A stretch of DNA of 63,785 nucleotides, the filler included, from Hausera hauseri (Eukaryota): assembly GCA_046269625.1 (NCBI GenBank). It is 11 parts of 11 records of this genome, joined end to end, with 100 filler letters (N's around TTAATTAATTAA, not from the genome) between each part and the next. Parts side by side here need not be neighbours in the genome. Positions count along the whole stretch, not along the records: positions 1 to 11,909 come from JBJURY010059995.1; 10 more parts are not named here. The stretch is one strand, 5' to 3'. Both the position numbers and the translations under genes were made by a program. The notes under the pieces were generated by a model. It was not told where the DNA came from. It was given only the letters and a program-made list of their open reading frames with translations, and did no database searches. Below, piece after piece: positions 3-54,708 of the stretch (its first letter is position 1; the number at the start of each line of letters is the position of its first letter).

Positions 3-998
3 ATCCTGAGCTAATAAACAATCATTTTGAATCATATCCTTATAAATTTGATATTGATTATTTACCATATAATGGAATAAATAATCTATTTTTCCGTTAT
101 AATAACTCATCGGTCTTACTTCTGTGGGATGTACGGTCTTCTGAGCGTTTTCTATTTCTATTTCTGAAACATAAATATTTTCCATATTAGTAGCAAAAAT
201 ATCTTCAACTCCACATCTAGTCACTTTTTCCTTTCGGATGAATCTTATAGAGTCTTCAATTTTCGTGGATATCATAATTGTTGGTGTGTCTATTTGTTCT
301 AATTTATCTTCCTCGTTTTCATTTCCAATGTTTCGTCGTGCAAACGGTGTACTGAGTCGTATTCCTCTGGTCACGTTAAATTTTACCTTTTTTAAAAAGG
401 CCAAATTACATTCAACCACCGGTGCAATCCAAGTAATAATTGAATCAGTAGTTCTACAGTACTCAGTGCCGTACTTACAATTTGTTTTGATCATCAATTG
501 TTTTGATTCCACATCGAATGAAATATCCTTTTCAATAATGGTTAATGTATACAGTGCTTGTACAACAACTCTTGCAACACCATCCACAGTGTTTCCATAA
601 CAATCTCCGTTAGCTGTAATAGACCCTTCCTCATTGATTGTATGATAATTTATAGCGTTTACGGCTGCTGCTATTTCGATTTTGTTATTTATTTTTAATT
701 TTCCTCTTTTTGCCGCATCTCTACATTGATCCATTGTTAATTCATGCGGTTCATTTGGGGTGGCCATTAAGATATTAGTTGAATGTCGATGTATTTTTCC
801 ACAGTGCCATTTCTTTATTTGCCTAGTTAGCTTACATTCTAGCGCTTTTACTCGTATGAATCTATTTTCTTGGTATATCCTGTAATTTTTAGTACCTTCG
901 AATATAAGTTTATCAGGCTCTGCATCTGGACATTTTTCTAGATCAACAAGGGAGTATGAAGCTCCAACCGCTGGATAATCGCAGTCATATGCTCGAAA
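3..998 (-). CDS. Chuvirus-type (class III fusion) glycoprotein ectodomain, N-terminal part
   Basis: FRAYDC..SYSLVDLEKC..LECKLTRQIKKWHCG..DQC..GSITANGDC..VVVQA..C..YC..W..C..RCG..YYNGKIDY..IYKDMIQNDC. Cys spacing and motifs match the Jingchuvirales G pattern as I know it. Preceded by the hydrophobic signal WLIILIIILCRGTHG (999-1043). Confidence 0.85.
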
Positions 999-3900
999 AC
1001 CATGAGTTCCTCGACACAGAATTATAATAAGTATAATTAACCATGTTAGATCATTAGTCCCTTGTCTAGGTAATGTACTACTAAGTAGCCTTTGTGCTTT
1101 AGTAAACAATTCAGAAAATTCATGTTCTCCATGACTATCTATTCTATATTCCTGTTCTGATATTTTACTTTCAGTCTTTTGAGGCTTATCAAAATTCAAC
1201 AAATCATTCCATCCTCCAATTCGATCTATATCTGGAGATATATGTGTTTTCAAAATTTCTATGACTACATCAAAACTACTCTCTCTTTCTTCAGTTGTAT
1301 CCGCCGAATTTTTAATTCTCATTGCTAAATATACTAAAATAGTGATAACTCTATCTTTTGTTAAACCTCCTGTCTTAATCCACTTTTGTATTATTTCACT
1401 ATCGTCTATAAGATCTATCCGTTCTGGTAATTGTTCATTTTTCACCGCAGTTTCTAATCGAACCAACGTTCGCTTTAAGTGATTTTCAATATCAAGAGTG
1501 AATGGCTCATCAATTAATAGGTCATTTTCTACTGGAAATAGGGAATTATAAATTCTCCATAAAATGGGTTTGATTTGCCTTGTTTCAAGATCCATTATTC
1601 GAATTTCACTTTTTCTTAGTGCTTTGGTTAAAGTATCAACTTTAACTTGCTCCCAAAGATTTTTCCTTGGACGACCTTGCGGTCTCTTATCAGTTTGTGT
1701 TGTTTCTTGTCTTGCTTGAAGCATATTTAATATATCTTTTACATTAGCTTCATTAATTAGATTTGATTGTTCTACTTCTTGTGAAATATCACCAATAACT
1801 TGGCTTGTTTGTTCATTCGGTCCTTCTGTCCGAACTGCCAATCCAGGAACTGATTGATCGATTTCCATTCTTTCTTGAGGAGCTGGTGTATGCATTTCAT
1901 CTTCAATATCCAGCCGTCGGATAGCTTCGTTTGATCCCAACACATTCTGTATACGCTGTTCTAGTTCTCTTTGCTTTAAGTTTTCGCTGTCTGTCCAATT
2001 TTCTAAGTGTACTGTAACAATTTCAGTTGGATCCATCCCATCCATAATTCCTAATTCTATCCATGGCCTTTCATAATTTAGGACAGTGCGACCCATAAAT
2101 GTCACTTGTTTTATTTGAATGTTCTCGTCGTCATATTGTAATCTTATCACTTCGATAGTTCCAATCATTGGTTCATCAACGTTTATAATAACTTGAAATT
2201 CACTAGTTTTATTTCTATATTTACCATATATATTTAGTTGAACTATTTCATTTTCCTCTAATCTTCTATCACTCATTCTTTTTTGATTATATCGTTGCAA
2301 TATCTCTTTTGCCATACTTGCTTCCAGTATGTGATCTGCGGCTTGTTTTACTAGAAACTTACGTATTCGAAGAAATCTTTCTCTATCTTCAATTAACCAA
2401 TTCATAATTCTATACATTTTATTCATAACAAGTGTGCAAACGTCCTCTTTATCACTGTTATTTAATAGCATAGTTAAATAATATTCAAACTGATCTTCTT
2501 CCGTTCGTATCTCTTCGATCTCCACCCCTGGGCCAAGCATCATAATTCGAGACATCTCTGTGGTATCTTTCCCTTTTTGGCTCTCGTCGCCGTAATTTTT
2601 ATCAAAAATATTTTTACCTTGCTTACTACCACCGACTATGGATTTGCCTTGACCTGTAAACCACGTATACATTCCTTGTATTCGTTTTGTTTTATCCATC
2701 TTTACTTTAGTACAATATTTTGATTTTTTTGACCGATTTTCGTATTTTGTTTTATCGGTGTAGACTTCTAAACCATTTTTATTTTCTTGACCTTTAGTCA
2801 ATACTGGTGATACATCTCTACTTATCATATGGTACGTATTTTCCTGTCGTACCTGATTAGTTGACTTCTCTTGAGTTGCCCTCAATCTTAGTTGTTTTTC
2901 TATTATTGAACCATCTACTCCATATCTCACTAACATCATCTTTTTATCAATTTTCTCATATTCTTCGTTTTCTTCATCTTTCTCCGATTGAATCCAGTTA
3001 TCCAAAAATACATGATATACCGAGCTATCCAATCGCTCTATTATTTCTCGCAATTTTATAAGTAAAACCATCGATATTTTCATTTCAAATCTTATATTTA
3101 ATTTACTAATACCCAGCATTCTTTTTACGCATTCAATCTCTACTTCACAAACATTATCAAATCCTCTTAAATATCGAATTCGTTTAACTTTTAATACACT
3201 AAGTTCTTTATTCATGGACACTTTGTTAAATTCATTTATCGTCTTAATTATTTCGTCAAAGCAATGACTACACTTATATCTTTGGAAAGAATTAATAGAT
3301 CGTCTGACCTTCAATCGTCTTTCTATTTCATTCTCCTCTTCTACTATATTTTCATTTAAGCCAAAACTTCCTGTCTTTAAAGTCTGTTTTAAATACGTTT
3401 CTAACTTCACTTTATTTATCTCAGTACTAGCTATATTTATGTGTGTCTCCGCATTCTCTTTAACTAATTTTGTTTCACTTACAATTTCACGATTCTGTAA
3501 GTCTACCTTTTTTGATAATTTTTCTGGGTCCTTCAATTTCTCTAGTCGTTTTCTTAAATCATGTCCCGATTCGTCTTTGGATTTTTCAGAATCTACTTTA
3601 TCTTCTTCTTTAATCATTAAACATTGCTTCTTAAATACATTTACTTCATTACAACCCATATTATCAGAATTTTCTAAGAAATTAACATCTATTTCCTTTA
3701 CATTATCATTCAATTTTATCCTTAATCCATCTGGTATACTCGCCTCTCCATTTATATCTGTCTCATTTATCTCATTAATTTCTGAACATCCATCATTAAT
3801 TTTTAGCCGGTTCAAGATTTGCAATTCATTACTCACTTCTATATTTTCGACTTTAATCTTCTCAATCTTTCGAGGTAGAGTTAGAATTTTAAGAGTCTCA

Positions 3901-5975
3901 ACACTCGACTCTTCCGTCAGCTCATTATCGCCCAACCTTTTACTGAATTCACTACAATTCCTAGAATCCGGTTCTACATCCGAATTAGATTGTATATCCA
4001 TTGAAAAATTGTCAATATTACATTCACTATTCAATATTACCGTGTTTAAGTCGAGTTCAGAACTCACATTCTCCTCACTTTCATTACTGGAATCAGTGGA
4101 CGGTGCCTTTAAATAATTTTCACTCAATTCATTTGCCATATAAATACATTCATGTTCCAACAGACTTTCAACATCCTTTATTTTTGACACTTCGGTCAGA
4201 TTTATTTCGACTGCATTTAATTCAGTACTTAGTTTATTTTCGTCTTGACAATACCAATTACTACAACTAGCTCCTTGTGGGTAACCGCCATATTTACTTA
4301 CAAACTTCTTTTCTTCAATTTCCCAAAATTTGAATACTTCATTATCAACATCATCATCCTGACTGATTTCTTCTGGGCAACCATATTCATGCATCATTTG
4401 TTTAATAGTTTTTATCTGTTCTGGATACTCTATTTTCCTACAATAACTATCACTCTTAGATTTTTCTTTTGATTTCTTATTCTTTACTCCAAACATACTA
4501 GCTTGATTTCCATGCAATACTTTTAACCTATCCAATTGAGTTCGCATCTCATCCCTTTCGGCTCTCAATTGTTTCAGTTCGAATTCTACATTTACACTAT
4601 TCGAATTTTGATAGTTTTCAACATTACTATCATAATTTCCTCTTGGATTCCATGTATTTTCATAACATTCCTGATTCTCATTGTCCCCCGATTCATTCAA
4701 TTGTGTCTGGAAATTTTGATTATTTTGCATAAGAGTTAGTTTATTATGGATTACCAACAATGGACATTTCTTCCAAACATGTCCTACTTGATTACAATGA
4801 TAACAAAATCTATTTTCATTCATCATACCTACCTGAGTTGGGCAGTTTCGGGCCACATGTCCCCACTGTGCACAAATATTGCACTGCTCAGGTTGTTGAA
4901 TATAAGGTGGCATTAATACCGGCGTTCTTTTTATTTCTGGGCAAGACTTGGCAATATGTCCAAATTTTTTACATTGGTTACACTGAATTGATCCTCTGTA
5001 ATTGACTTTGTCCCTTTCTAACGCCATTGCTTGTTGCTGTGTAGTTTGTGATCGGAGAGGATATCGTTTTTGTTGTTCTGGAGGGTTAATCCATTGTTTT
5101 CTATTCAAATTTGCTCCAGCGGCCATATCTTTAATAGGAGTACCCATTCTTTGTGGTTCTAGATTTGCCCTTATAGGTGGTTTTACAATATTTGGGTCGA
5201 TATTATGAAACAAATTTTGATTAATGTTCTGGTTAGTGCCTACATTCCAACGAGGCGGACCCCAACGCGGTATCGAAGGAACTTGCCAACCGGCCTGTCC
5301 ATAAGACCACGATGGAGTTCGCCACGCTTGGTTAGTCGGCCTAAAATTTCGATTTGGGTTTTGAAGTCTAGGGTTACTATTTAGGGTTTGGTTGTTATTA
5401 AATGAATTTTGATTGATTTGATTTAATTTATTCTCTACGTTTTCAAAATTTATTGCTTTTCTTATTAATTCACTCAAGGTGGAAACATCACTTTCGATCA
5501 ATTGTCTTTGAAGTTTGGGACTATTAAGTCCGGTGATAAAACAATCTATTAGAATTGGCTCTATAGCAAATATTTTAGGAGGACTCTTATCATCTTTATT
5601 TATTTCCTCTTTCTCTAAAGCTTCTTTGTATCGTTTACCTAGCAATTGTAAAGCAAATGCAAACTTATTAACTGATTCCCCAGGCAATTGCACTCTAGAA
5701 CGCAAACTTCTGAGTTTAGCACTAGACGATGGGTCAGGGTCTAGATTCCGTCGTAGTGTATCTACAAATTTATTCCAACTTAATTTCTCCTTCTCCTCAA
5801 TTTGTAAATAAGCCTGCAATGCTATCCCTTCAAGATGGGCAACTAAACGTTTGATTTTCTCTTTTTCATTCCACTCCAACCCATCTGCTTGTGCTGCGTA
5901 TACTAACATAAAATCGTCAAATTCAGACGGTTCACCTGAATACCTGCCTAAATTTAAATTAGCGAACGTAGACAT
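3..5975 (-). CDS. Gag-accessory-envelope polyprotein of a Gypsy-type LTR element (>=1991 aa, 3' end off-window; not in ORF track)
   Basis: Manual codon-by-codon check found no stop from ATG 5975 (frame open from 6113) to base 3. Capsid-like N-terminus (LGRYSGEPSEFDDF...W...KIKRLVAHLEGIA; MHR-like QLPGESVNKF) and three CX2CX4HX4C knuckles at 4764-4982. No D[ST]G protease, YxDD or DDE motifs seen. Confidence 0.9.
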   Translation of the reverse strand, partial: MSTFANLNLGRYSGEPSEFDDFMLVYAAQADGLEWNEKEKIKRLVAHLEGIALQAYLQIEEKEKLSWNKFVDTLRRNLDPDPSSSAKLRSLRSRVQLPGESVNKFAFALQLLGKRYKEALEKEEINKDDKSPPKIFAIEPILIDCFITGLNSPKLQRQLIESDVSTLSELIRKAINFENVENKLNQINQNSFNNNQTLNSNPRLQNPNRNFRPTNQAWRTPSWSYGQAGWQVPSIPRWGPPRWNVGTNQNINQNLFHNIDPNIVKPPIRANLEPQRMGTPIKDMAAGANLNRKQWINPPEQQKRYPLRSQTTQQQAMALERDKVNYRGSIQCNQCKKFGHIAKSCPEIKRTPVLMPPYIQQPEQCNICAQWGHVARNCPTQVGMMNENRFCYHCNQVGHVWKKCPLLVIHNKLTLMQNNQNFQTQLNESGDNENQECYENTWNPRGNYDSNVENYQNSNSVNVEFELKQLRAERDEMRTQLDRLKVLHGNQASMFGVKNKKSKEKSKSDSYCRKIEYPEQIKTIKQMMHEYGCPEEISQDDDVDNEVFKFWEIEEKKFVSKYGGYPQGASCSNWYCQDENKLSTELNAVEINLTEVSKIKDVESLLEHECIYMANELSENYLKAPSTDSSNESEENVSSELDLNTVILNSECNIDNFSMDIQSNSDVEPDSRNCSEFSKRLGDNELTEESSVETLKILTLPRKIEKIKVENIEVSNELQILNRLKINDGCSEINEINETDINGEASIPDGLRIKLNDNVKEIDVNFLENSDNMGCNEVNVFKKQCLMIKEEDKVDSEKSKDESGHDLRKRLEKLKDPEKLSKKVDLQNREIVSETKLVKENAETHINIASTEINKVKLETYLKQTLKTGSFGLNENIVEEENEIERRLKVRRSINSFQRYKCSHCFDEIIKTINEFNKVSMNKELSVLKVKRIRYLRGFDNVCEVEIECVKRMLGISKLNIRFEMKISMVLLIKLREIIERLDSSVYHVFLDNWIQSEKDEENEEYEKIDKKMMLVRYGVDGSIIEKQLRLRATQEKSTNQVRQENTYHMISRDVSPVLTKGQENKNGLEVYTDKTKYENRSKKSKYCTKVKMDKTKRIQGMYTWFTGQGKSIVGGSKQGKNIFDKNYGDESQKGKDTTEMSRIMMLGPGVEIEEIRTEEDQFEYYLTMLLNNSDKEDVCTLVMNKMYRIMNWLIEDRERFLRIRKFLVKQAADHILEASMAKEILQRYNQKRMSDRRLEENEIVQLNIYGKYRNKTSEFQVIINVDEPMIGTIEVIRLQYDDENIQIKQVTFMGRTVLNYERPWIELGIMDGMDPTEIVTVHLENWTDSENLKQRELEQRIQNVLGSNEAIRRLDIEDEMHTPAPQERMEIDQSVPGLAVRTEGPNEQTSQVIGDISQEVEQSNLINEANVKDILNMLQARQETTQTDKRPQGRPRKNLWEQVKVDTLTKALRKSEIRIMDLETRQIKPILWRIYNSLFPVENDLLIDEPFTLDIENHLKRTLVRLETAVKNEQLPERIDLIDDSEIIQKWIKTGGLTKDRVITILVYLAMRIKNSADTTEERESSFDVVIEILKTHISPDIDRIGGWNDLLNFDKPQKTESKISEQEYRIDSHGEHEFSELFTKAQRLLSSTLPRQGTNDLTWLIILIIILCRGTHGFRAYDCDYPAVGASYSLVDLEKCPDAEPDKLIFEGTKNYRIYQENRFIRVKALECKLTRQIKKWHCGKIHRHSTNILMATPNEPHELTMDQCRDAAKRGKLKINNKIEIAAAVNAINYHTINEEGSITANGDCYGNTVDGVARVVVQALYTLTIIEKDISFDVESKQLMIKTNCKYGTEYCRTTDSIITWIAPVVECNLAFLKKVKFNVTRGIRLSTPFARRNIGNENEEDKLEQIDTPTIMISTKIEDSIRFIRKEKVTRCGVEDIFATNMENIYVSEIEIENAQKTVHPTEVRPMSYYNGKIDYLFHYMVNNQYQIYKDMIQNDCLLAQD
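1197..1590 (-). other. Bcl-2-like domain within the polyprotein
   Basis: BH1-like KWIKTGGLTKDRVITILVYL and BH2-like ILKTHISPDIDRIGGWNDLL in correct order and spacing; upstream BH3-like IENHLKRTLVRLE. Confidence 0.65.
1662..1688 (-). other. AT-hook motif within the polyprotein
   Basis: KRPQGRPRK versus AT-hook consensus K/RPRGRPRK. Confidence 0.6.
2001..2250 (-). other. Ubiquitin/SUMO-like domain within the polyprotein
   Basis: VQLNIYGK..FQVIINVDEPM..VTFMGRTVLNYERPWIELGIMDG..IVTVHL resembles the beta-grasp pattern (FxGxxL..ELGxxDG..IxV); no C-terminal GG. Confidence 0.5.
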
Positions 5976-6197: not shown

Positions 6198-6215
6198 GTC
6201 CTGGCGTGGTCGCCA
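6198..6215 (-). promoter_or_regulatory. Primer-binding site complementary to a tRNA-Arg 3' end
   Basis: Minus strand TGGCGACCACGCCAGGAC, a few nt after ...AAACA and 220 nt before the gag ATG. TGGCGACC is the tRNA-Arg PBS start known from mdg1/412-type Gypsy elements. Confidence 0.85.
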
Positions 6216-6220
6216 AAATT

Positions 6221-6829
6221 TGTTTGTTTATACGTTATTTTATCACTACCCCGCTCCCAGATTAAATTGTTATGATTTACTTGATTTAACTCTAATTAAT
6301 TTTCCCCCTTTTTTCTTTTTTTAACTACTATGATTTTCGTATTCTTTATCACGTAATTTCCACTTTAACACAAACCTTCTTCAAGGCTTTTATCCCCTTG
6401 CTTTTTCTATCGTTATTTATTAATATCCAAACGAACTGGCTAAAGTGCTCCGAACCCGATTGAGATCAGACAAACTAAAATGACTACGATAGTGTAGGCC
6501 CACAAAAAAACAACTAGGTATGATTTTATCAAAATCAACAAGGAGTTTATCAATCACGAGTAGAAAATTGTGGCAATTTAACAAATCGTCCACAATTTTC
6601 TAACTACACACAGACGATTTTTTTCAAGCACAATATTTAGGGCCTTAGTTTACTTTCTTTCTTTCTAAGAAAGGAAATATGACAATTAAAGTATAATAAT
6701 AAAAAAATTAAGAAAAATTACCACCCACTTGAAAGTAATTTGTTTATTTCTTCTCTTTTTCTATTCCCCAAAAGTCGAAACTCTACAAGCTCGATTGACC
6801 ATCAACGTCGGTTAAGATTTTAAATAACA
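6221..6829 (-). repeat. Putative LTR (~609 bp)
   Basis: Minus strand starts TGTTATTT right after a purine tract and ends AAACA just before the PBS (TGTT...AACA inverted termini). No second copy is in the window, so the 5' boundary is inferred. Confidence 0.6.
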
Positions 6830-7173: not shown

Positions 7174-9057
7174 TCATGGTGAATCTAATACGATTTGATC
7201 AGTCCATGATGAAAAGTCGTCAAATAATGAGCGAGTGGGTGTTGGTGTAGGAATGGGTTTCTGAGGGCTTCCGATGGGTAACAAAGTATCTGTATCTGAA
7301 ATATCACCTGATTTTGATTGGGTTGGTATTGTGGAAGTAGGAAAAGTGGTTACATCTGTGCATAATAAGGGGTTAGTGATATTTGTAGTTTGAGATATCT
7401 GAAAGGTTTTTTTTGCTTGGTAATGGAAGGAATTGAGTGGTAAAGATTGCATAGCGGGGCTATCAGCATCTGTCGGTACGCGAAGAGGTGGTAAGAAAAG
7501 ATCTGAGGTAGGGTTTTCGAGGAAAGAAAAGTGTTCCCAATTACATTGTGGGATTGAGGATAGGGGTTTATACGGTAGTGTATTTGCCAAGTCAGATAGG
7601 GCTTGTGGACGCCATGGGGGTAAAAGCCAGTTAAATCGTCGTCTTTCTTTGTAGATGTCATGGACAATAAATATCATGTATTCAGCGTCCATTTTACTTG
7701 GTATAAAGTAATCAGTCGATTTGTATATGGCAGGAAAAGGTTTAAAGCCATTTTGACTATAGTTGAGGTCTATATACCCTAGTAATAGCTTGGCTGAAAG
7801 ATGCCAAAGGTTCAGGAAGTAGAGTGGGTCGAAAGTAACCAATATTCTGCCATATATGGCACGTTGAACATGGGCTCTACAGAGGGCGAAATCTGGTGCA
7901 TGATCAACATCATCTAAAGATATACTATGACAATGTTTATCCACATTATCAATTTTTTCTCTAGGGCAAACAAATGTCTTGTATTTTATGTTAAGTGGTC
8001 CATCTGGATCGGTACTAAGATCACCCAAGTAAATATGAATTACTACAGGAAGACTGCCTGAAAATGCCACGGCGTAGCCGGCGAAAATAATTTCCTGAAT
8101 AGGGTACGGATAGGGTGTTCGAACATAAGAATGTGGGATAGGATTCGGGGGTTGGGGTAGCCAGTCAAGTTCATTTAGGGGCACTTGTCCATTAATTGAT
8201 GTATCCAAATAACGGCGCCAAGGTGGAATATCCACATATTCTAGTTCTATATACGTAACCGAATTCTCTCTCATTAGGATGGTAAAGGAATGTGAACTCC
8301 AGACATCTGCTGTCAAAAGAATAGATTTGAACGAAGATAAGTATACTTTAAATATGGGTAGGGGTGGTCTGTGGATCTCTAATACAACAGATCCTTTAAT
8401 AACAGATAAAAGCATATCTTTTGGTTGTAGTGGAAAATTCTGAATGGAAAATTGTTGGTCTAAGATTTGTCGCATGGGGAATGGCCCATAATTGTGTGAC
8501 CAATAAGAAATCAATATACAGCGATCTTGCAGGCTATTACTTTTGAATTTATTAGGGATTGTGAACACAGAAGGATATTTAAGTGTAATGTTGCGAAATA
8601 ATGTATCAAAACGTACCGAGCGATATGTGGATCTAGAACGTAAAATTTCAAAAAGGAAAGGAATAGATGATCCCTTTGGCAAAAAAATGGGAATGCGTGG
8701 CATTTGTTGCAAGTTGGCAAATTGGATACTTTGCCCGATATTACGGATTGGTGGGGCATACATTAAAAAATAGGAGGTATTAGAATAAGACGTAGAAGCG
8801 AGGGGTAAGAGAAGTAAGGGAGGGTGAATTGTATCCATAGTTTGTTCAACGGATGCTTCACCACTTTCGATGCGGATAGTAGACTGCACATAGGTTGATC
8901 TCTGGAGCGGTATTGATGTCATACGGAGATATCTAACTTCACTGATGCAATAAGTCACTGAGATCACCTTGATGCTTGAGTGATCTAAAAAAGTAAAGTG
9001 GGTGTTAGACCACTGTGCCCAAGCCTGAAAACAATAGGCCGTGGCCGACTTTAATTG
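7174..9057 (-). CDS. Unknown Pro-rich 627-codon domain, probably expressed by stop-codon readthrough
   Basis: Track ORF 7174-8967 is in frame with ORF 9058-9393 and open up to its TGA; context TGA CAA TTA. Confidence 0.7.
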   Translation of the reverse strand, partial: QLKSATAYCFQAWAQWSNTHFTFLDHSSIKVISVTYCISEVRYLRMTSIPLQRSTYVQSTIRIESGEASVEQTMDTIHPPLLLLPLASTSYSNTSYFLMYAPPIRNIGQSIQFANLQQMPRIPIFLPKGSSIPFLFEILRSRSTYRSVRFDTLFRNITLKYPSVFTIPNKFKSNSLQDRCILISYWSHNYGPFPMRQILDQQFSIQNFPLQPKDMLLSVIKGSVVLEIHRPPLPIFKVYLSSFKSILLTADVWSSHSFTILMRENSVTYIELEYVDIPPWRRYLDTSINGQVPLNELDWLPQPPNPIPHSYVRTPYPYPIQEIIFAGYAVAFSGSLPVVIHIYLGDLSTDPDGPLNIKYKTFVCPREKIDNVDKHCHSISLDDVDHAPDFALCRAHVQRAIYGRILVTFDPLYFLNLWHLSAKLLLGYIDLNYSQNGFKPFPAIYKSTDYFIPSKMDAEYMIFIVHDIYKERRRFNWLLPPWRPQALSDLANTLPYKPLSSIPQCNWEHFSFLENPTSDLFLPPLRVPTDADSPAMQSLPLNSFHYQAKKTFQISQTTNITNPLLCTDVTTFPTSTIPTQSKSGDISDTDTLLPIGSPQKPIPTPTPTRSLFDDFSSWTDQIVLDSP

Positions 9058-9350
9058 TCATAAGATAGTTGTATAAACACCATCGGTTTGCCTATTCACA
9101 ATCTCGTCGGGCACAAAATAATTCAAATTAAAGTTAATATCATATTGTGGTATATTTTCATATTCGTTTAGGTACTCTGCATAAAATGTCTTATTGGATC
9201 TCTTAAGATACACGGCAAGTGAACAGCATATTATGATTGCTATACCTGAAATAATAATTACAACCACCCATGTATAGAAGAGAGGGAATGAATTTTGTTT
9301 AGATTTCACAAATGCACTAGTTGTTGAGGCCGGTATACGTGAAAAAAAAA
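9058..9350 (-). CDS. Transmembrane anchor and cytoplasmic tail of the integrase-fused glycoprotein (frameshifted at a T9 run)
   Basis: WVVVIIISGIAIIICCSLAVYL followed by KRSNK and Tyr motifs YENI/YTTI; overlaps the end of the upstream ORF at the homopolymer 9342-9350. Confidence 0.65.
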
Positions 9351-11746
9351 TAAAAGGTAAATTTTTGTTTCCAATTTGAAAAATTTGTTTCAAATAATAT
9401 GGGTTTTTCCAACGGTTTGGGAATTACAAGACGTGTTGTATTGCGTTCATGCGCTGCTGACTCAGACAAGGATTGGTTTGGTGTAAAGTTAACTGTTGTA
9501 GTTAAAGGGTCCATTTTTGTAGGGACAATTCGTGAGTCCAACGTAATGACTTTTGGTCTTATGTGTGGAGGTGAATTAAATGAGAATAAATGTTTTAAGT
9601 TCAGCGTCGTGTTAATTATAGGTTGACGTGATGAGTTTACCAAGATTGCGAACTGAATCCGACATACAGAGGGTCGAAAATGGATATCTTCTTTCTTTAT
9701 TACTACAAGCCGAGGTGAAGACGGTCCCACGGACACCAGCCAATGTTTTCCTATGTATATAGCTTCCAATACTGGAGGGTTCCACCGTGTTCGTAAAACA
9801 TCAATATAAGAATAGGGGATTGCTTTCCACAAAAATGATCCCAATGTAAATAAAGGTTGAACAGGGGGAATCAACCAATCGTGTATGAAATATATGTTTG
9901 TCTCGGATATTGGAATGGTAATTCTGACCCATGTCGGTTTATTATAATATATTGGAAAACGTGGTAAATCAAGGGATAATTTTGGAACAATAGTCCGTCT
10001 AGTAAAATTTAGTCTAATTCCTTCAATCTGTACTAAAACTCCGGATTGTCCTTCAGTCCATAAGTACTGATAAACCAAGAATGGTTCTCTGAAGATCCGA
10101 AACGAAGGTGTTTGTAAAGGTGGCGTTTCCCACCTGTCGACTATTGTCGTTGAACCTTGGTCAAAGAAGGCGAAAGTTTGTTGCACTGTGGGCTTGTCCA
10201 CAGGATAAAAACATGCTCCGCCAGGTGACTCAATTGTACATAGGCCAAGAAATTCTACTGACCGGTTATCCCAAATATGAAATATTAAAACTTTAACAGT
10301 GTTAGTCGTCTGAGGAATATTTGTGTGTAAATAAGTTATCTGGTTTTGATGTCTCCAACCCATATATATTGCTGGTCGACATTCGTAATTTCCTAAGCAG
10401 TGAAGTATGGTAAAAAGGAAAGTTGCGTATAGAATACGACTTTCAAATAATGTAGAGCAAATTGGTTGAGTAGGATCTGTTACTTTTGTTTTATCTTTCT
10501 TTTCATCTTCCGGTTGTTTTATTTCTGGATCTTTACTTTTCGATATGGGCGGAGAAGTCAATTTGCACCATTCTGCTGCTAGACAAACAATTTCATTACG
10601 TTTGCCTACTTTCTTTTTAATAAAAATATTGTTATCTGTAACTCGTTCAACCTGATAAGGTCCTTTCCATGGACGAGTTAGTTTGGGTGATAGACCTTTC
10701 TTTGTTACATGGTCGTAAACCATTATCCAATCATCTACTTGAATTTTATGGGGTCTGGCATGTTTATCATATTGCTTTTTATATTGTTTTTGGTAGTCCA
10801 ATGTTAGTGACTGAGCTAAAGCCCAAGCCTTCGTTAATCTTTCCTTTAGATAGTTTACATAATCTGGTTCACTTTTTGCCAATGCTTCCTTTGGTATAAA
10901 TTCTAAATCTATGGGTAGTAATGGTTCTCTTCCATACATCAAATAGAATGGAGATTCATGCGTTGCTGTGTGTGGCGCAGATCTCAAAGCGAACATACAG
11001 GCTGGGATAAATAGATCCCAATCATCTTGTCGATCGTTTGTTACTGTTGCCAGCATTGACAATAGTGTCCCATTTAATTTTTCTACCATTCCATCTGTTT
11101 GTGGGTGATATGCAGCGGTTTTAAGTTTGTATATAGTAAATAGTCTGCACACTTCTTCAAACATGTGATTTATGAATTCTCTTCCTTGATCTGTTAATGT
11201 TTTTCGTGGAGCACCATACCGAAAAACTATTTCTTCAACAAACAAAGCTGCAACAGTAAATGCCGTCTTATCAGGCATTGGAAAGGCTTCCGGAAATCGT
11301 GTCAAATAATCAATGAATACTAGTATATATTGGTTGCCACTTTGTGTTTTATGTAATGGACCGACAATATCCATTGCAGTAAATTCCATTGGTCTTGCTG
11401 GTGGTGTTATAGGGTGTAATTGCGGTTTACTGCGTAGTCCTCTAGCTCGTCTAGTTGCACAGATTTGACAATCTTTACACCATTGTTCCACATCCTGCTG
11501 AACAGTTCTCCAATAATATTTTGTTTTGATTCTTCCTAACGTTTTTTTGAAAGCCGGATGACACGCCAACATTCCATCATGTTCTTGGTGTAGTATGTCT
11601 TTTCGTTTTTCCAATGGTATTACAATTAGTTGTTTATTACGGTGCCAATATCTTACTAGATCATTAATAATAAGATAGTGTGATCCTTGATTTAATAAAT
11701 GGTGCATCAAGGCTTTCTCTTCCGTATTAATTTTCTTTGTTCTCAA
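9317..11746 (-). CDS. Gypsy/Ty3 integrase with ~370-aa glycoprotein-like C-terminal extension (pol 3' end; 5' part frameshifted and truncated by contig end)
   Basis: HHCC (H..HP..C..C), MDIVGP, DYLTRF, TDQGREF, YHPQTDGMVE, WKGPY; then hydrophobic ILYATFLFTILHCLG (10391-10435) and several N-X-S/T sequons. Confidence 0.9.
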   Translation of the reverse strand: MRTKKINTEEKALMHHLLNQGSHYLIINDLVRYWHRNKQLIVIPLEKRKDILHQEHDGMLACHPAFKKTLGRIKTKYYWRTVQQDVEQWCKDCQICATRRARGLRSKPQLHPITPPARPMEFTAMDIVGPLHKTQSGNQYILVFIDYLTRFPEAFPMPDKTAFTVAALFVEEIVFRYGAPRKTLTDQGREFINHMFEEVCRLFTIYKLKTAAYHPQTDGMVEKLNGTLLSMLATVTNDRQDDWDLFIPACMFALRSAPHTATHESPFYLMYGREPLLPIDLEFIPKEALAKSEPDYVNYLKERLTKAWALAQSLTLDYQKQYKKQYDKHARPHKIQVDDWIMVYDHVTKKGLSPKLTRPWKGPYQVERVTDNNIFIKKKVGKRNEIVCLAAEWCKLTSPPISKSKDPEIKQPEDEKKDKTKVTDPTQPICSTLFESRILYATFLFTILHCLGNYECRPAIYMGWRHQNQITYLHTNIPQTTNTVKVLIFHIWDNRSVEFLGLCTIESPGGACFYPVDKPTVQQTFAFFDQGSTTIVDRWETPPLQTPSFRIFREPFLVYQYLWTEGQSGVLVQIEGIRLNFTRRTIVPKLSLDLPRFPIYYNKPTWVRITIPISETNIYFIHDWLIPPVQPLFTLGSFLWKAIPYSYIDVLRTRWNPPVLEAIYIGKHWLVSVGPSSPRLVVIKKEDIHFRPSVCRIQFAILVNSSRQPIINTTLNLKHLFSFNSPPHIRPKVITLDSRIVPTKMDPLTTTVNFTPNQSLSESAAHERNTTRLVIPKPLEKPILFETNFSNWKQKFTFYFFFTYTGLNN

Positions 11747-11909
11747 ATTCTCTGATTATTTGTAATTCTGGATCCTTTTCCTGTAAACATATTAATTTCT
11801 AAATATCGGTCTCAGTCAATTGATTATCGTGTAAATCTTTATGAAATATTAACATTTGAGAAACATGAATTTGTTTACATTCAGTTTCGAGATTTTCTAA
11901 TTCTTGTTT

Positions 11910-19035: not shown

Positions 19036-19325
19036 TGGAAAAATCCTGGTCGTCCATATTTTACAAAAATGGGACATTTGAAAATAATGTGTCCAATTTT
19101 GTAAATTAAAAAAGTAATTGTAAACATGACATAAATTAGAAAATTTTAGAAGTATAAAGTATAAGATGATTTTCTGCACAATATTCATGACTATGCGCCG
19201 CTAATTCTAAAATTGTCTAATTGATGTAATGTATACAATTACATTTTTAATTAACAAAATTGGCCACATTATTTTCAAATGTCCAATTTTTGTGAAGTTT
19301 TGGCGATCCGGATTTTTCTACACTG
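19036..19325. mobile_element. MITE-like element with ~80-bp imperfect inverted repeats
   Basis: ggacatttgaaaataatgtg(t)ccaattttgt at ~19071 is the reverse complement of ~19254-19284; right end CACTG-TA is Tc1-like. Confidence 0.55.
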
Positions 19326-23235: not shown

Positions 23236-24631
23236 TTAGATGTCAATATTATGAAACAAGGCACGCAGATAGTCCTTAAGATCACGCCCTGCATATTTAG
23301 AAAGAAATGCAGCAAGACGTCTTGATAGTTGAGCGTATTTAGACTTTCTGGTAATTCCGCTCTGTATACGACTGATGGTTTGTTCTGTTAAGTCTTGTTC
23401 ACGACGGAAATGATCAACCAATATGTGAATAGTAGGATATTGGCACGCGACAGACGATTGGAACGCGTTATACCAACCCTCTGAGTTATTTGTTCGCGGC
23501 AAGTCATCAGCAACACGTCCTCGCATGTTCCACATGGTGATAGGAAACAACGGGTTGGCTCGTCGATTGCGTCTCAAGCAACCAACATAATTGTTTATCT
23601 AGTAATCATAAACATTTTTGAGATTATCGGGTCTACTCGCTCAGTTCATCGAAAGCGGACCCAATATACTCCAGAGGAACGAAACTCAGTGCAATTAGCA
23701 TCTTTGAATACATTTTAATGTTCTCGTTGTCGCGATACAAATGAGATAAACCTTTGTTTTGTATTCTACACTATAATGACTGATCAAGTTGAAACAGACA
23801 ACCAAGTACGATAGCATTTAGAAGTACAGTAGACAGTGCGTTCATACCTCCTTGCTCAAAATCGATCAGAATGTTAATAGGCGTGAGATTGTCATAGTTC
23901 TGGCACTTTCCGGAAAACCCGATCATAGTTAGGTCGTGTTTTTGTTCCCATGAGCACATTAATGGAATTGAGCGATTCTCAATTAAAGCATGTATGGTAA
24001 ATACCTGTAGAAATATCTTGGGAGCTACCTTGAATGTTCCGTCCATAAAGCAGTGCAGATATTGCTCCAAAAATTACAAATTTGCTGCAGTGCCGAACAT
24101 GGAGATTCTGTTTGTGTCTTGATTACTCGAATCCCAGAGAAGCAAATTTTCAGAAAGTGTTGTTACCTTCATAGTATCCGGGAGAATGATGTCTTTAATA
24201 GAATCTGGCCTCGGACTGGTGACATAAGGTGCCTTTCGTTTCCGCTCGACAGTACGTTGGCTTGTCGAATACGACGGCAAAAGATGGGTTGCTTCCAGCG
24301 AGACTGCTGCTGTGCTGTTCAAAATAATTTGACGAGGTTTTTCCACTCCATTTTCAGCTTGTTCGCGTATAGTCGCCTTCATTTTCTCGCTTTTATTTTT
24401 TGCGATATTTGGTGCGTGCATATGTTCAGTACTTGTTTGTAACGTCTCGTCTGTTTTCTTACGTCTGCCGGCACTCTTAACGCACCTCCACGAAGACGAT
24501 CCATCTTTATTTACCTTGTCGCATCGATATCGATAACTTTCATACAGCAGTTGTTGTTTTCCTTTCGGTGACCTAATAATATCCATGTAGTATTTTACTG
24601 ATTGTGTTGTGTTGATGTTTTGTCGTCCCAA
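23236..24631 (-). mobile_element. MULE (Mutator-like) transposase pseudogene with N-terminal FLYWCH
   Basis: KGKQQLLYESYRY..WRC, MDGTFKVAP..QVFTIHA, IDFE, GCLF, RTNN..EGW; stops and frameshifts. Confidence 0.9.
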
Positions 24632-24999
24632 TAAATATCCATCTAATATTGCACTAATTGTGTTTTGTTGATGTTTTCTTGACCTAATAAATATTCATGT
24701 AATAGTTGACTAATTGTTTTTTGTTGATGTTTTGTCGACCTAATAAATATCCATCTAATATTTTACTAATTGTGTTGTGTTGATGTTTTGTCGACTAATA
24801 AATATCCATCTAATATTGCAGTAATTGTGTTTTGTTGAAGTTTTGTCGACCTAATAATATCCATCTAATATTTTACTAATTGTGTTGTGTTGATGTTTTG
24901 TCGACCTAATAAATATCCATCAAATATTTGACTAATTGTGTTTTGTTGATGTTTTGTCGACCTAATAAATATCCATCTAATATTTGACTAATTGTGTTT
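24575..24999. repeat. ~59-bp tandem repeat, ~7 copies
   Basis: Unit taataaatatccatctaatattttactaattgtgttttgttgatgttttgtcgacc. Confidence 0.9.
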
Positions 25000-25099: not shown

Positions 25100-28000
25100 T
25101 GAAAATCACAGAACCCTCTATGGACACGATTATACAACGCTTCTTCCACGACAATGTTATAGACACACAACGACCATCAGAATTTTTACGCACATCTTTG
25201 GCACATCTGCACACTCTCGGTGTCACTAAAGAACACTACCCCGAACTATTGCGTCATTACTTTCTTAACGCGTTACTCATCCAAATTCGGGCTTTATTTA
25301 CCGTGGTGGAGGACTCCACGGCTATTGAAAAATTGGCCGAATTAGCCGCTAAACACATGATGTTCTACAATTACATTTACCACCAGTCGTTTCGGCGGCA
25401 GTTGCCCCTAATGATATTCAATCCAATAACATATCAATAGAACAACAACTCAATCAGCTATGTGCTAAAAATACCGCACTAAACGCAACCATTAACAATA
25501 TAAACAACAAATTGATCTAGCTTTTCCTGTCTCGGCGAAGGGATTTTCTTGCTGAACGCGCCAATTCTGCATCTAAAAACCGGTCACCATCGCCTGCGCG
25601 GTCATCAATCTGCTATTATCAAAACAGATTCAATAAGAATGCCAAGAAATGCAGCCTAGGATGCAAATTTTACAACAGAAGTTTTTCTTCAGACACCGTT
25701 GTTTGCATTTACCACGCAAAGTTGAAAAATCAAGCCCGTAAATGCATTCCAGGCTGCACTTTTAAACTAGATACGAACGACGGACACTACCTTTTCTTCT
25801 AATAGTCGTCCTAGTTCACCTTTTCAAAAAAACTAAATTTGCCGCAAGAAGTCATGCAAACTCTGGTAAAGGCACTACTTTACTTTCTGAATGCCGACAC
25901 GACTTTTCTGCTGTCTTTACTCTAAAGGCTCCAATCACCGCTCCTACGACGCAATCCGTTGATTTCCTCATTGATACAGGTGCAGCGATTTCCTTATTAC
26001 CACAATTTTTTCCTGTACAAAATTCACCATTCAGAATTAAACCCTTACACACCGCTTCAGGTCAACCGCTGCACATTTCTGGCACGGCTAAATTATCTTT
26101 TATCTTACCAAAATTTCCTTCACCTTTCCACTGGACGTTCACAGTTGCCAACGTCGAAATGACAATTTTAGGGTCCGATTTCCTATCACATTATAATTTA
26201 TTGGTTGACTGCAGTTAACGATGTCTGAGGAGCGGCATCACTAGCAGCATTGCTGAGCATGCCAATAGCATTTCGACTACGGTGCAATCAATCGAGACAC
26301 AGAGGTCAATTTTGGGAAAATCAATAAATAATTCGAATTTCCATAACAATTATTCAATTCGTAAATTTTTAAATAATAATATTGATCTTCTATCGATGTT
26401 CGATGTCGATAATTGTGGTACTTCCACCAATGTTCATTCACTTGACGAAATCACTTTATCCAACACCATTTTAAATTCGACCATCTTACACCAAATATCA
26501 CTTGTGTGCACATCACAAAACAATTCACAAATCGCAGCCGCTACTACTCAAGCTGCTTCATCATCATCATCAAATCTATCACAGTTGCCTACAACTTTAC
26601 AGCAATTCCGTGCCACATCATGTCCACGCGTACTTAAAAAGATCGTTCGTTTACATATACAAGCAGCACTGTACATCACAATTACACAGCATTAACGACC
26701 AATATGCCAAAAGATACGACCACTGTCACCTTGTCGTAGACAGGCTGCAGAAGCCGAATTTCTTGAACTAGAACGCTCCGGAATTTTACGCCGTCCCAAA
26801 TCTCCTTGGTCGTCACCTTTACACATTGTACAAAAAAGGACTGTACTTTTAGACCATGCGGTGACTGCCGCCAGTTGATCAACTTGACAATCATGGATGC
26901 ATACCCCTTGACACTCATCAAGGACATCCTGCATCGCCTTAATTCAACTATCATTTATTCGACCAACGATTTGGCCAAAGCATACCACCAAATACCGGTG
27001 GCACCCGAAGACATAAAAAAACTGCCGTTACTACTTCTTTTGGCCTCTACGAGTACCTGTTTATGCCATTCTGTTTGCGAAATGCCGCACATACTTTCCA
27101 GCGACATATCGACTCAATTCTCTCAGATTTCCCGTTTGCGCACCCTTAAATTGATGATATTCTGATCGTTTCGTCTTCGGTCAAACAACACGAGGAACAC
27201 CTTTGCGCGATATTCCAACGCCTTCACCACCATAATCTCCAAGTCAATTTCGACAAATGCCATTTTTCAAAAAACTCATCAACTTTTTAGGCCACGTTAT
27301 TTCACCAGACGGCCACTCTCCTCAACCAGACCGAGTTGAAGCCATTAAAAATATCCAATTGCCACGTACAACCACCGAAATGCGCAGCTTCCTCGGTACC
27401 CTACACTTTGTATATAAATATGTACGATATTGCTCCGAATTGACACCACTATTTGCACACTTAAGCGGTGGCAAAAAACATCAGCCAATCCAGTGGACAC
27501 CTGAGTTGGTAGACAAATTTGATAAATTACGCGAAGGAAATAAGACCATCGACATTCTCGCTTTCCCCAAGCCTGATGCAGAACTCATCCTTACTACATA
27601 CGCTTCAACAACTGAGGTAGGTGCTGTACTTCACCAGATCTACAAAGGATAAAATCAACCGCTAGAATTTTTCTCTCGCAAGCTAACACCCCCTGAAACC
27701 AGATACTCAACGTTCGATCGAGTTATTGGCCATTGTTCTTGCTTTAAAGCATTTCTCCCACCTACTTGTCGCTCGCCATTTTACTATACAAACCGATCAC
27801 AAAACCTTACTTATAACATCATAGCTATGAAACATGCTTCCACACGCCAAGAATGACAAATATCATACTTGTCGACTTTTAACTCCGACATAAAACATAT
27901 TAATGGGGGTAATAAATTGGTGTCCGACTTTTTATCTAGGTCGGTTAGTTCGATTAATTTTTCACAGATTTTTACGCTAGCTCAACTTTAACAGAACCAG

Positions 28001-29828
28001 CCACCTCAAGACATGCTTAATTCTTTAAAGTCTTGCACAATTGTTGACGGCGTGACTTTAGACATTTCCAAACCAGGTTATTCCGTAATAATTCTCGCAC
28101 CATCATTGCAAAGGCGAGAATTTAATAGCGTACATTCGCTACACCACCCTGATGCTAAAGCCACTTTTTGTTTACTCCATCGACAAGTAATATGGCAGTC
28201 AATGCGTTCTTATGTGCAGGCGTGGGTTAAAGAGTGTGTGGATTGCCGAAAATTCAAAACAACTAAACATTTAAAGACACCATTGTTCCACTTCCCCTGC
28301 ACATTGCGTTTCGACATCATTGGCCCTTTTCCTCCAGACAGAGGTTATCAATTCATTCTCACCATGATGAATCGTTCCTCGCGATGGCCAGAAGCCATCC
28401 CTCTGCGCAGCACGAACACAGATACCATAGCTGACGTTTTCATTCGTACATGGATTAGCAGGTTTGGATCACCTCGTTTTATCGTCACGGAATAGGGTCC
28501 ACACTTTGAATCCAACCTGTTCAAATCCCTTGTTAACCGATTGGGGTTCCATTACATGCATACTACGCCTTACCATCCCCAATCGAATGGCCTTCTAGAA
28601 CGCTTCAACCGAACATTGAAAACGTCACTAGGAATTGTTGCATCGTCCAACACTAGTTGGACGAATCTTCTTCCGTTTGTTCTGCTTGGCTGGCTGAACA
28701 CTCCGTCTACTTCTACGGGATGCTCACCTACTGAAGCCTTATTCGGAGCTCCTGTACGATCATTGTTCGAACCAACTGCTTTACACGACACTCCTACAGA
28801 TGAAACGACACGGACGGCGCGAAATCCCTTCGTTACGGTCAGCAAAGATTCGCTCTGTAGGATACTTCACAAAGACAAAACATATTTACCCGAAGACTTG
28901 TATTCGACAAAATTCGTATGGCTAAAAAATCAAACACCGTGCAGTTTTCAGCCGCGGTATCTGGGGCCCTATAAACTGATATAGCTGCATTCATATCATG
29001 CTATTATCTCTAAAGACGGCAAAGAACTTACAGTACATATTACCAACTTAAAGTCCGCCTTCTTTGTCGACGACACTTTACCAATGGACACGTCAACCTC
29101 TTTCCTCACTCCTACACTTCCTACTCTTCCTTTATCTGTTGCTACATCAGTTTAACCTCCTCCTTCTGCTTCTAGTTCTACTTCATCATTCTCCACACCT
29201 TTTACTTTTATTTCTATCTCTTTTCCTTTTTCTACCACTCCCGCTGTGTCATTTTCTACTTCTACTCTTCCGCCTAACAGAATTCCAATTTCTACTTCAA
29301 TTTCCGTTTCTCGTCCTTCATCTTCTAACACTGTCTTGAATACCTTTAACCGTCCATTTTCAACAATGTCTCTTCTTCCTTCACCTTCTTCTTCTCTTCA
29401 TTTTGACTCGTCTTTGCACAACACAACATTCACTACAAAATCTGACAATTTTTTCCCTAACTTCAACCTCTGCAAGCAAACACATCCCATAAAGACAACA
29501 TATGCAGAGTCATATTTAGCAAGTATAGCAGGGAAAAATCAGTAGAATGCACCAAACGTCTTGCTTACACTAAGACCAATTGACACAGGCTCTTTTTGTT
29601 TAGCGATTTTTTCTTTCCGTCTATTTTGATTTTTATAGTTTTCACTTTGCCACGGAGGTGATGTGGTGCCCACGATGGCCGGTGCCCATTGGCCTATTTG
29701 GTCGGGCGCGGCAGGGCGTCCGTTGCCGCCTCGTCGGGCTCATAGTCGGGTCCGATCTTCCGCCTCTAAATCGACTGTCAAGAAAAACACGTACTATAAA
29801 TGATCGTACTCAACAATGTCCTTCGATG
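25100..29828 (+). mobile_element. Decayed CsRN1-like Gypsy LTR retrotransposon (gag-PR-RT-RH-IN, PPT, partial 3' LTR from 29662)
   Basis: CHCC-type gag fingers, FLIDTGA, RPCGD, DDILI, YSTFDREL, DIIGP, YHPQSNGLLER, RYLGPY; many stops and frameshifts. Confidence 0.9.
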
Positions 29829-32362: not shown

Positions 32363-34790
32363 TTATTTTTTAGCACTTTTTACACTAATTGCAATGTGAG
32401 TACGCGTCTTAATACCGTCTTCTTGAATCACACGTTTGTCATCCCTATTATTCAGATTCATTTTCTGCAGATGTACAGTCGTCACAATATGTGAATGGGA
32501 TCTGATTGAATTCATCATATTAATTTTTACCTGATCACCATGTAGTGCCTTAATATAGTCATCCATAGTTAATTGATCTCGTACAACCGCCCGCTGGGCA
32601 CCTTTTGGCCGTTTCTTAATGATATCACCGACAGCTCACGCATACATTTTTAACACGGGACCCACGAATCGTGTGATTATTGAGCTGTTCACTTCGTCTT
32701 TAAACTTCCCCAATACTTTTTTATTGACTAAAGAGTGATTCGGGTGATTCGCTGGATAATCACTCGTATTCATGTTTTATGCCATCACCATGGAATTCGC
32801 AAAAATATCTCTCGTTTTTATGCTAAACATGAGTGAGTCTGTATCCATGTACCGTAATTGCAGATTTTCCCAGCCAAACCTAAGCAGCATTGTGTTATAG
32901 TGGAAGTCGTACATGAGTATTTTGCTCAAATCCAAAATACACAAGCAGACATATATTAGCTTACTGAATTTGATCCGGTCTTTTCCGAAGTCAATACAGA
33001 TGAGGTTTTCCATGTAGATTTCCGAATTTCGAAATGTTCGTTTTCTAATGAGTTTTCTCGCTCGCTTCCACTCGGTAACCAGTTCGATATTTTGCCGCTT
33101 CCTTATATTTTCCATCGTCTTCCCGAACATGGCATTGTTGTAAAGCTTGAAGCTCCGTACTAAATTGAATGTAACGTTCTAGCCAGGGGATTGACTGAAT
33201 TGCAATGTCCTTCCGATTTCAGTGACTTTCAGCCCATGTTGAATGGCCTGTTGAAGTAGTCGACACTATACAACGTACCGTTATCGATTACCGAGATGTA
33301 GAATCAGATTTTTTAATTTTTCACTTCTGAAGCTCGGTACCTTAACCGATTCCGGCAGAAATGACAGCTGGTTATGTAGTTTATGTAAGTTCTTATGGTA
33401 CTCAATACCCACTTGAAATATATACCCTGCGGAGGATGTTGGACTAATTTCCATTATGTCCGTATCCATGTTGCCGATCCATTCCGTCCATCTGAAGTCT
33501 CCGTACGGAAGATAGTGGGACATGGCCCACCCGTAGACATTGTTAGCATACAGATATGTGATGTACCGTGTCTCTTTTTCTCATCGTACTTTTTACCCAT
33601 ATGCTTATTGTTGGCTTCAGCGTATCGGTGCACTACTTGATACAGTCCACCACGAATCCCATGCTCCAGCATGATAATTATGTTAGTCTTTATCTGCAGT
33701 TGTACCTTGGTATGTTTCAATATTGCATTCCAAGAGATTCCAGGGGTAGTGAAATAATGTGCCGGATCTACTTTGTATGTGGCCATGGTGACAGCTCTGA
33801 ATCTCTTGAATACATCAGTGAGCAACAGTCCGTCAGTCTTCAGGCACACGTCACTGTACTTTGTATGTTTGACCCAGTCGGGTAGCGGAATATAGGAGGA
33901 ACCACCTATTGGCGAATACTTACTCGAATACTCAGTTGTCGGATTGCAGATAGCATCCATCCGCTTTTCTTCATTTCGCTTTCTCCAGTTTCATTGATTA
34001 ATTTTTCGAATTCACCATCATTGAAATCCTGTAAATCAGTTTCTTTAAGCACGGGCTTATTCACAGTTTTGAATGCCCGTTGTGTCGTTTCGCCACCGAC
34101 GTTAACGAACAATGCTTCAAGGAAAAAGCTTATTTTAAGTGAATTGTTGCAATATACTTCATCCTGTAAAATTCCTTGGACCTCCGACTGGCAGAATTCC
34201 GGAAATTCACGGATTGTCTGCGTATGATAGTTTGTGTGGGTTTTGGTTCATAGCATGTTTTTCGGCTACTCGGACTCAACGGCTTTATTTGGTTTTGCAT
34301 TCGAATGTGTTTTAAGTTTGACTGCCGTGGTTGTGTTGACTGTACTTGTTGACAGCTGCGTAGTTTGCATGCATGTTTGCAGAATATCACGTTTCTTCAG
34401 TGTTTCAAAGCGTGCAAGATGGTCTGTGTGGAGATTATAAAAGTCAGGGAATTGAGATTTTTCTGTAGTTTTACAATTTGGGCAGACAGTAAATTGATCC
34501 ATTAAATCTGGTCAAATATTTTTCCATTTCTTGGGAGTTGAGAAAGATGTTGATTTCGAGATTTGGTTTCTTTCTTGAGGTAGAATTGATTGAGACATTT
34601 GTTTCTCTGTGAGTGATGCATTAAACTGATTTGAATGTCGTTTATGCTGTTCGTAAAATTCCAAATACGAAGCAGCATCGGCAGATTGACATTGTGGGCA
34701 TAAGTAATAAATAAGTCCGTTTTTTGACGTTTTGTAATGTTTTCATATCTGATGGCATTGACCTAGACCATGCATTTTTGAATTGCAATA
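32363..34790 (-). pseudogene. Polinton/adintovirus polB, internally deleted and frameshifted
   Basis: GSSYIPLP, DPAHYFTTPG, IRGG, FGKTMENIRKR, YMDTDSL, GKFKDE, DDKR. Confidence 0.9.
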
Positions 34791-38775: not shown

Positions 38776-38821
38776 TTTATGTTACAGTCGCCTTTACATT
38801 CCCAAATTTCCTGACACCCTA

Positions 38822-54241: not shown

Positions 54242-54384
54242 CGTTGTCGTCGATGGTGTCGGTTTTGCTTACATTGCAACAATTTGAACGAAACGTAAAT
54301 GAAAGATTCGGTAAACTGGGACAGAAAGATGAAAACAATGCTCCCATATCGCAAATCACCATATACTTACAGTCATCGTTTATA

Positions 54385-54708
54385 TTAAACGGTTCCACCA
54401 ATGAGTCCACCCAGTAATGACGTGACAACCTGTAGAATTGCACCAAGGAATCCGCCATCTTGCTGGTACATGACCTCTCGTTTTACTCGTTTACTACGAG
54501 CGTTGGCAAAGCCAATGAGTCGCTTTCGATACTCTAGTGAATTCTGCTTCCCACCAAAAATGTAAACGTGACCCACAAGAATATTGTACAAAATTTCCAT
54601 CAAATCGTTTACTACAAACTGTGGGAATGATCACAGCATGTTTCGCTCATGTCTCGTAGGTGCCTTGAGCAAAGCAATAAAGTACGGCTGACTACGTTTG
54701 AATCGCAT
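54385..54708 (-). pseudogene. Small conserved Polinton ORF (QxGGFLG motif)
   Basis: EILYNILVG..QQDGGFLGAIL. Confidence 0.55.

Follow-up and report, generated by a model that had tools for sequence, protein, structure and literature searches.

A Bcl-2-like domain upstream of the in-frame envelope of a retroelement with Burro-like layout in Hausera hauseri

Related Systems and Layout of the Element

The closest described systems are the giant gypsy-like elements of planarians known as Burro or GYPSM1 (Jurka, 2007; Grohme et al., 2018, via PMC6431247). According to the part of PMC6431247 that deals with them, these elements are 25–30 kb in size and harbor an ORF of about 5000 aa, whose polyprotein comprises Gag, three knuckles, a Ubi/SUMO-like and a BCL2-like domain, and then an in-frame Env, with protease and RT following in the same frame. 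Experiments are called for there, and on the BCL2-like domain the same part contains neither groove residues nor a topology or an experiment. BURRO1 transcripts are up after PIWI knock-down, as reported in a passage of PMC8532177, and the relevant part of PMC13238120 contains nothing on cargo. A second related group are the HSV/gB-type errantiviruses with GAG-ENV-POL order, described from flatworms, nematodes, and bryozoans (PMC13524379); in the main text of that paper the terms Bcl, Burro, apopto-, and ubiquitin occur 0 times, and cargo is left untreated. Viral Bcl-2 mimics are described from dsDNA viruses and include GIV66, A179L, CNP058, KsBcl-2, and M11L. In the parts of PMC11209288 and PMC5691656 that cover them, they are encoded by genes that stand alone, and many possess a tail anchor of their own and have had their BH3 binding measured. 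A functional test of a retroelement Bcl-2 or an account of its anchor topology was not found in the openly searchable literature.

The window analyzed here is a stretch of 63,785 nucleotides from H. hauseri, in which 11 short contigs are joined by N spacers and pieces of animal-type genes (spectrin, glutamate receptor, ferlin) indicate animal DNA. The Bcl-2-like domain, of which no second copy was found within the window, is located on the first contig (1–11909). There, a minus-strand open frame of 2037 codons runs from 6113 to position 3 at the contig end, and encodes Gag with three zinc knuckles, a long spacer, the Bcl-2-like domain, a hydrophobic stretch, and a gB-type Env, in this order (Table 1). 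A sequence-only reading had assigned the domain to a retroelement, which agrees with its position in one frame with Gag and Env. The capsid-like domain begins about 45 codons past the first Met.

Table 1. Features of the element on the first contig of the window (positions along the window).
Feature	Position	Strand	Basis or remark
N-terminal part of gB/chuvirus-type Env ectodomain	3..998	-	Pfam Monjiviricetes_fusion E 3.7e-23; 139 relatives; contig end cuts Env
Hydrophobic stretch LTWLIILIIILC (1014–1049) plus RGTHG, predicted internal Env signal peptide	999..1049	-	hydropathy; predicted cut between 999 and 998
Bcl-2-fold domain, polyprotein aa 1504–1644	1182..1604	-	model residues 17–157 align to Bcl-2 structures; PDB profile matches
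BH2-equivalent with GGW	1197..1244	-	Asp where 6/7 relatives have Trp and 1/7 Tyr
BH1-equivalent (end of helix 4, helix 5)	1326..1382	-	TKDR at 1350–1361 where Bcl-xL has NWGR
Helix in BH3 position	1437..1502	-	model helix 51–72; without L-x-x-x-G-D signature
Possible ubiquitin/SUMO-like domain	1989..2276	-	by eye
Gag	4764..5975	-	capsid-like domain 5526–5843, Retrotrans_gag E 1.5e-5; three CCHC zinc knuckles 4764–4982, zf-CCHC, 3 stretches
Primer-binding-site-like sequence starting TGGCG	6198..6215	-	sequence
Accessory frames of 121 and 627 codons, after integrase and before gag leader	7174..9423	-	no Pfam family
End of pol, integrase	9320..11755	-	Integrase_H2C2 E 3.8e-16, rve E 2.8e-10

The integrase on the contig is of gypsy type and the Env after Gag of gB/chuvirus type, as would fit an enveloped Ty3/gypsy element; the RT lies outside the contig. 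Within 7174–10500 (minus strand), the integrase bears a C-terminal extension of about 400 aa after a hydrophobic stretch, for which no Pfam family was matched, and the accessory frame of 121 codons also contains a hydrophobic stretch. A non-coding stretch that ends at the primer-site-like TGGCG (6215) separates the accessory frames from the gag frame. Since the integrase is located upstream of gag, the end of one element and the start of one element meet on the contig, which would represent either a tandem copy or a collapsed assembly. Purine tracts occur on the minus strand at 6300–6322 and 6246–6258, 85 and 30 bases before the TGGCG, and the nearer one is followed by a 25-base TG...CA stretch (6221–6245, minus strand); the region 6215–6322 could be a terminal repeat of very short length or else a junction that has been collapsed. 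In run X1, which may be the window's own sample, 4734 contigs were placed on the 6.1 kb, of which 3328 show a likeness below 95%, which argues for a diverse multi-copy family.

In its layout, as judged from an 11.9-kb partial contig that ends inside Env, the element is Burro-like. As in Burro, a Gag with three CCHC knuckles stands at the start of a long polyprotein, the BCL2-like motif directly precedes an in-frame Env that is akin to the fusion proteins of mononegaviruses, the element has accessory ORFs, and it is multi-copy. The MATH, BIR, and ankyrin domains of Burro were not found in the sequenced part, which stops in Env; a search of 95 tiles from the three long frames of the element gave neither these nor a dUTPase. 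A possible ubiquitin-like domain was seen here by eye, and for 1989–2276 there was no Pfam match and no phmmer match of E <0.09 among the relatives collected. One relative, P0008, shows a weak ubiquitin match (E 0.031) at a similar place. That Burro elements carry BCL2-like and ubiquitin-like domains had been mentioned in the sequence-only reading and is stated in section 7 of PMC6431247. The pairing with a fusogen, which had been taken as the unusual part, is not new, as the same order of BCL2 and then Env has already been published for Burro (PMC6431247). With the gB-type errantiviruses the element shares gene order, as far as the contig reaches, and Env type, and the start of its Env resembles Smed_errantivirus_1 and _2 by eye. 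The domain is like the dsDNA-virus mimics in that they have the same fold at 9–19% identity and altered BH motifs, and unlike them in that it is part of a retroelement polyprotein and that its anchor would be the Env signal peptide.

Several other regions of the window were recorded. The whole 4.4-kb contig at 12011–16417 (minus strand) is one stop-free frame of 1469 codons that crosses pieces of unrelated host genes (glutamate receptor, ferlin C2 plus dsRBD-like, coatomer beta), and would be either an intron-free mosaic or an assembly chimera. Two decayed copies of another gypsy family with 68% DNA likeness are located at 26461–29128 and 59549–62206. Broken remnants at 33454–33990 and 53618–58178 resemble, by eye, a DNA polymerase and an integrase of the Polinton type, and tandem arrays plus a 281-base inverted repeat were observed at 37204–38776, 24569–24999, and 19038–19318.

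Identity and Anatomy of the Domain

The Bcl-2-like domain had originally been placed at 1197–1590 on account of two motifs. Both are present in the minus-strand frame where they had been reported, namely the BH1-like GGLTKDRVITILVY at 1329–1370 and the BH2-like HISPDIDRIGGWNDLL at 1197–1244. The place of the domain was thus correct, and its extent was slightly too narrow compared with the folded domain (about 1182–1604; Table 1). With the single sequence, Pfam Bcl-2 (PF00452) matched 1197–1400 alone at E 0.067 and 14.2 bits (cut-off 31.4; profile positions 36–100), and this match disappeared once the flanks were added. In a control with 137 tiles of 68 aa the Bcl-2 match was found only in the target tile (1/137), and about 16 of the 136 other tiles matched unrelated families as well or better. 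Given this number and the weak Pfam score, the two motifs alone amount to no more than chance. None of the candidates from the word-index protein searches scored (0/504, 0/1852, and 0/7995), pattern matches from the viral and metagenome locus scans were not confirmed (0/17 and 0/73), the ESM Atlas search gave no usable match, and single-sequence PDB searches were blank. The single-sequence AlphaFold model (pLDDT 40.7; best Z 6.8 in the fold search, with no Bcl-2 among 50 rows) is uninformative rather than negative. ARCH_RTEL1 (Pfam E 0.06–0.13) was rejected as a candidate because it is missing from the fold matches.

Thus, with the single-sequence tests all weak or blank, it might be that the segment is not Bcl-2 at all, but a helical segment with a chance GGW. 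A scan of 1.84 billion representatives with the query 3–2300 yielded 139 matches, which were driven by Env, and 28 of these relatives, picked for sequence upstream of Env, were scanned against Pfam. Five of the 28 independently matched Pfam Bcl-2 directly before Env, at the same place as in the window (E 7.7e-5 to 0.055, none of them reaching the cut-off). Two further carriers, P0010 and P0015, were added by eye for GGW, resulting in seven carriers. A profile from these seven rows, with the window left out, finds aa 1509–1641 at E 1.5e-9 as the best of 1182 six-frame pieces, whereby five of the seven rows had already been aligned across the domain region by the scan itself. The profile from P0015 and P0068 alone, which have no such alignment overlap, failed to recover the window at E <=1, and this result, like the choice of two of the seven relatives by eye for GGW, speaks for the chance reading. 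An 8-row alignment was built from the window and the seven relatives, which share 11–24% identity with the window. With the resulting profile against the PDB, the best 60 of 206 matches all belong to the Bcl-2 family, with a top E of 1.1e-5 to Bcl-xL.

The alignment-based AlphaFold model reaches a pLDDT of 66 overall (76–86 over residues 81–150) and a pTM of 0.59, and displays the helical bundle with central hydrophobic helix 5 that defines the Bcl-2 fold. The pLDDT is <50 at model residues 11–23, 42–51, and 69–81, and the N-terminal half, which forms one groove wall, is poorly modelled. In a structure search of 48,161 chains, the top 33 rows have the Bcl-2 fold (best Z 12.9 over 141 residues, rmsd 3.3), as does every one of the 23 chains that score Z >=8, and the best other fold has Z 5.5. 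Helical bundles can score Z near 13 through arrangement alone, a caveat that is answered by the unbroken single-family run and the gap to other folds. Foldseek returned probability 1.00 and TM 0.48–0.61, with 39 of the 40 matches listed belonging to the Bcl-2 family by title, and against viral models 11 of the top 16 were named Bcl-2, Bak, or BALF1; neither search gave a match at E 0.001 or better. Z values of the model are 10–13 to BH3-binding members vs. 4.4–5.7 to A52, B14, A46, and A49, a difference to which model bias may contribute. The structure prediction and Foldseek check proposed beforehand, for which any other predicted fold would have spoken against the domain, thus gave a Bcl-2 bundle. 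As the profile and three fold searches concur with the independent Pfam matches of the relatives, the chance reading is largely refuted and we regard it as extremely unlikely. The domain, which had been called Bcl-2-like, is almost certainly derived from Bcl-2; this identity is significant because of the relatives' profiles and the alignment-based model, not because of the motifs alone.

The anatomy of the domain deviates from that of canonical members. The NWGR motif, which canonical pro-survival proteins have at the start of helix 5, had been called degenerate and indeed reads TKDR in the window. Among the seven rows that cover this position, the fourth place is Arg in three and Lys in four, and neither Trp nor Gly occurs at its place in any row (0/7 each). 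In BH2, GW is invariant in the alignment, and the preceding Trp position is Asp in the window's copy. The BH3 signature is L-x-x-x-G-D. Its Gly-Asp pair is absent from the helix at model residues 51–72 (region pLDDT about 57), and thus the domain has no BH3 signature in helix 2 of the kind that marks Bax/Bak-type pro-death members.

Predicted Anchor and Distribution of the Module

A hydrophobic stretch between BH2 and Env is present in 8/8 module carriers and also in relatives without the Bcl-2 module, and small residues occupy positions -1 and -3 in 25 of the 38 relatives with such a stretch. Both observations argue for the stretch being the Env signal peptide. Signal peptidase would then cleave after the hydrophobic stretch, and the upstream product would retain the stretch as an anchor. 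We consider the resulting topology, with an ER tail anchor, to be likely. The linker between BH2 and the anchor varies from 28 to 59 aa among carriers.

What the analysis adds to the known layout is the family-wide loss of WG and the patchy presence of the module. Among the 24 informative relatives, i.e., those with 110 or more residues before Env, seven have the module and 17 lack it, a count in which carriers score by construction. On an Env tree of 23 rows, which is poorly resolved, five carriers need 5 changes vs. a mean of 4.7 for shuffled labels, and carriers are united in 0% of bootstrap trees. One origin of the module would be compatible with the well-supported branches of this tree. 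Env runs into protease in the carrier P0010 and into RT and integrase in P0011, P0012, and P0021.

Individual relatives vary in the cargo that precedes Env. P0019 lacks the Bcl-2 module and has a stretch before Env that looks ubiquitin-like by eye, and in P0015 more than 1100 residues without an assigned family lie ahead of the module. In the gag-env-pol relatives P0009, P0012, P0013, P0010, and P0024, Env is followed by at least two stretches that resemble retropepsin. P0011, a 2627-aa env-protease-RT-integrase polyprotein filed as hypothetical protein of a Flavobacteriaceae MAG, is probably animal DNA in a bacterial bin.

Possible Functions

The sequence-only reading had suggested that the element may modulate host apoptosis. 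In our estimation, the likeliest role of the domain, with about an even chance, would be that of a pro-survival decoy anchored at the ER membrane. Signal peptidase would cut after the hydrophobic stretch, Env would pass into the ER lumen, and the stretch would stay on the upstream product as a C-terminal tail anchor, as in cellular Bcl-2 proteins. The anchored domain would face the cytosol, and the protease of the element may free it from Gag. The groove, with the basic residue of NWGR kept, would bind BH3 helices of host pro-death proteins and thereby delay death of the particle-making cell. In favor of a decoy, Arg or Lys is present at the NWGR Arg position in 7/7 rows despite their low identity, and this Arg forms the hallmark salt bridge with the BH3 Asp, as described in a section of PMC5691656. 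The BH3 signature, which the domain lacks, is needed by pro-death members and is missing from some pro-survival members (PMC7022251, in the part on BH motifs). The kept basic residue together with the missing signature thus fits the decoy reading. Viral proteins without recognizable BH motifs can still bind BH3 partners, according to a passage of PMC11209288, and a second apoptosis-related domain, BIR, is reported for Burro in the part of PMC6431247 cited above. Against a decoy stands the loss of Trp and Gly of NWGR in 7/7 rows, to which the window's copy adds the loss of the BH2 Trp. Mouse Boo, in which the motif reads SWSQ, does not bind any pro-death partner (PMC5691656, in the part concerned), and in Bcl-xL the exchange G138A impairs Bax binding and leaves BAD binding intact (bioRxiv 10.64898/2026.06.23.733989, in the part concerned). 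Furthermore, the module is absent from 17 of the 24 informative relatives, which argues that it is dispensable, and the poorly modelled groove wall, the Foldseek E above 0.001, and the variable linker also count against a decoy.

The loss of Trp and Gly argues for altered or no groove binding, which makes a groove-independent function at the ER the main rival. It could be that the Bcl-2 scaffold has been re-purposed for a job with calcium channel, autophagy, or innate-signalling partners, which we regard as possible, though doubtful. This would fit the loss of WG throughout the family, the predicted anchor, which is ER and not mitochondrial, and the precedents of Bok and several poxviral Bcl-2-fold proteins. 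Bok, together with IP3R, acts at the ER, N1L uses a separate surface to block NF-kB (both in passages of PMC11209288), and in vaccinia A49 the fold is present but the function is not (PMC4358236, in the part concerned). However, a groove-independent job does not go well with the basic groove residue kept in all seven rows, nor with a model that is nearer to BH3-binding members than to A52, B14, A46, and A49, as far as this is not model bias. A structural role in the particle, in which helical bundle and anchor would form a matrix-like tether between the capsid precursor and the Env membrane, appears unlikely. The domain is made 1:1 with Gag and Env from one frame, and the early start of the capsid leaves scant space for an N-terminal matrix domain; yet P0013, P0024, and P0025 have in-frame Gag, signal peptide, and Env without the module, which argues that assembly does not need it.

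Very unlikely, in our view, is a decaying passenger without present function. In favor of decay, the copy in the window shows more degeneration than those of the relatives, with Asp at the BH2 Trp position, and most relatives are without the module, which was lost or absent. Against decay, the frame is intact over 2037 codons, and a divergent sister contig of 1637 letters from X1, to which joints were assigned by its depth value, is colinear with 517–2153 with no net length change. Among the islands of this contig with a DNA likeness of 80% or more is one on BH2 (1191–1244), which may hint at constraint on the sequence. The best-supported 40 of 1422 differences comprise 19 synonymous and 21 non-synonymous changes and 0 stops. 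As none of them lies inside the domain and transitions dominate, no claim on selection is made.

Overall, the order of the domains is already in print. In the openly searchable literature, retroelement Bcl-2 has so far been annotated only, and the dsDNA-virus mimics are the studied ones. The present analysis gives fold-level support for such a domain, a small family whose members share an altered groove, and a topology that can be tested. As a tentative and rather speculative scenario, enveloped gag-env-pol retroelements of several animal hosts, beyond planarians, may have acquired Bcl-2 in a single ancient capture, remodelled its groove with loss of WG and retention of the basic residue, and tethered the domain to the ER through the Env signal peptide; this would make it a class of Bcl-2 mimic borne by retroelements, with its own partner specificity, that would have been kept or dropped by lineage. 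If the proposed function is true, invertebrate endogenous retroelements would manipulate host cell death like large viruses.
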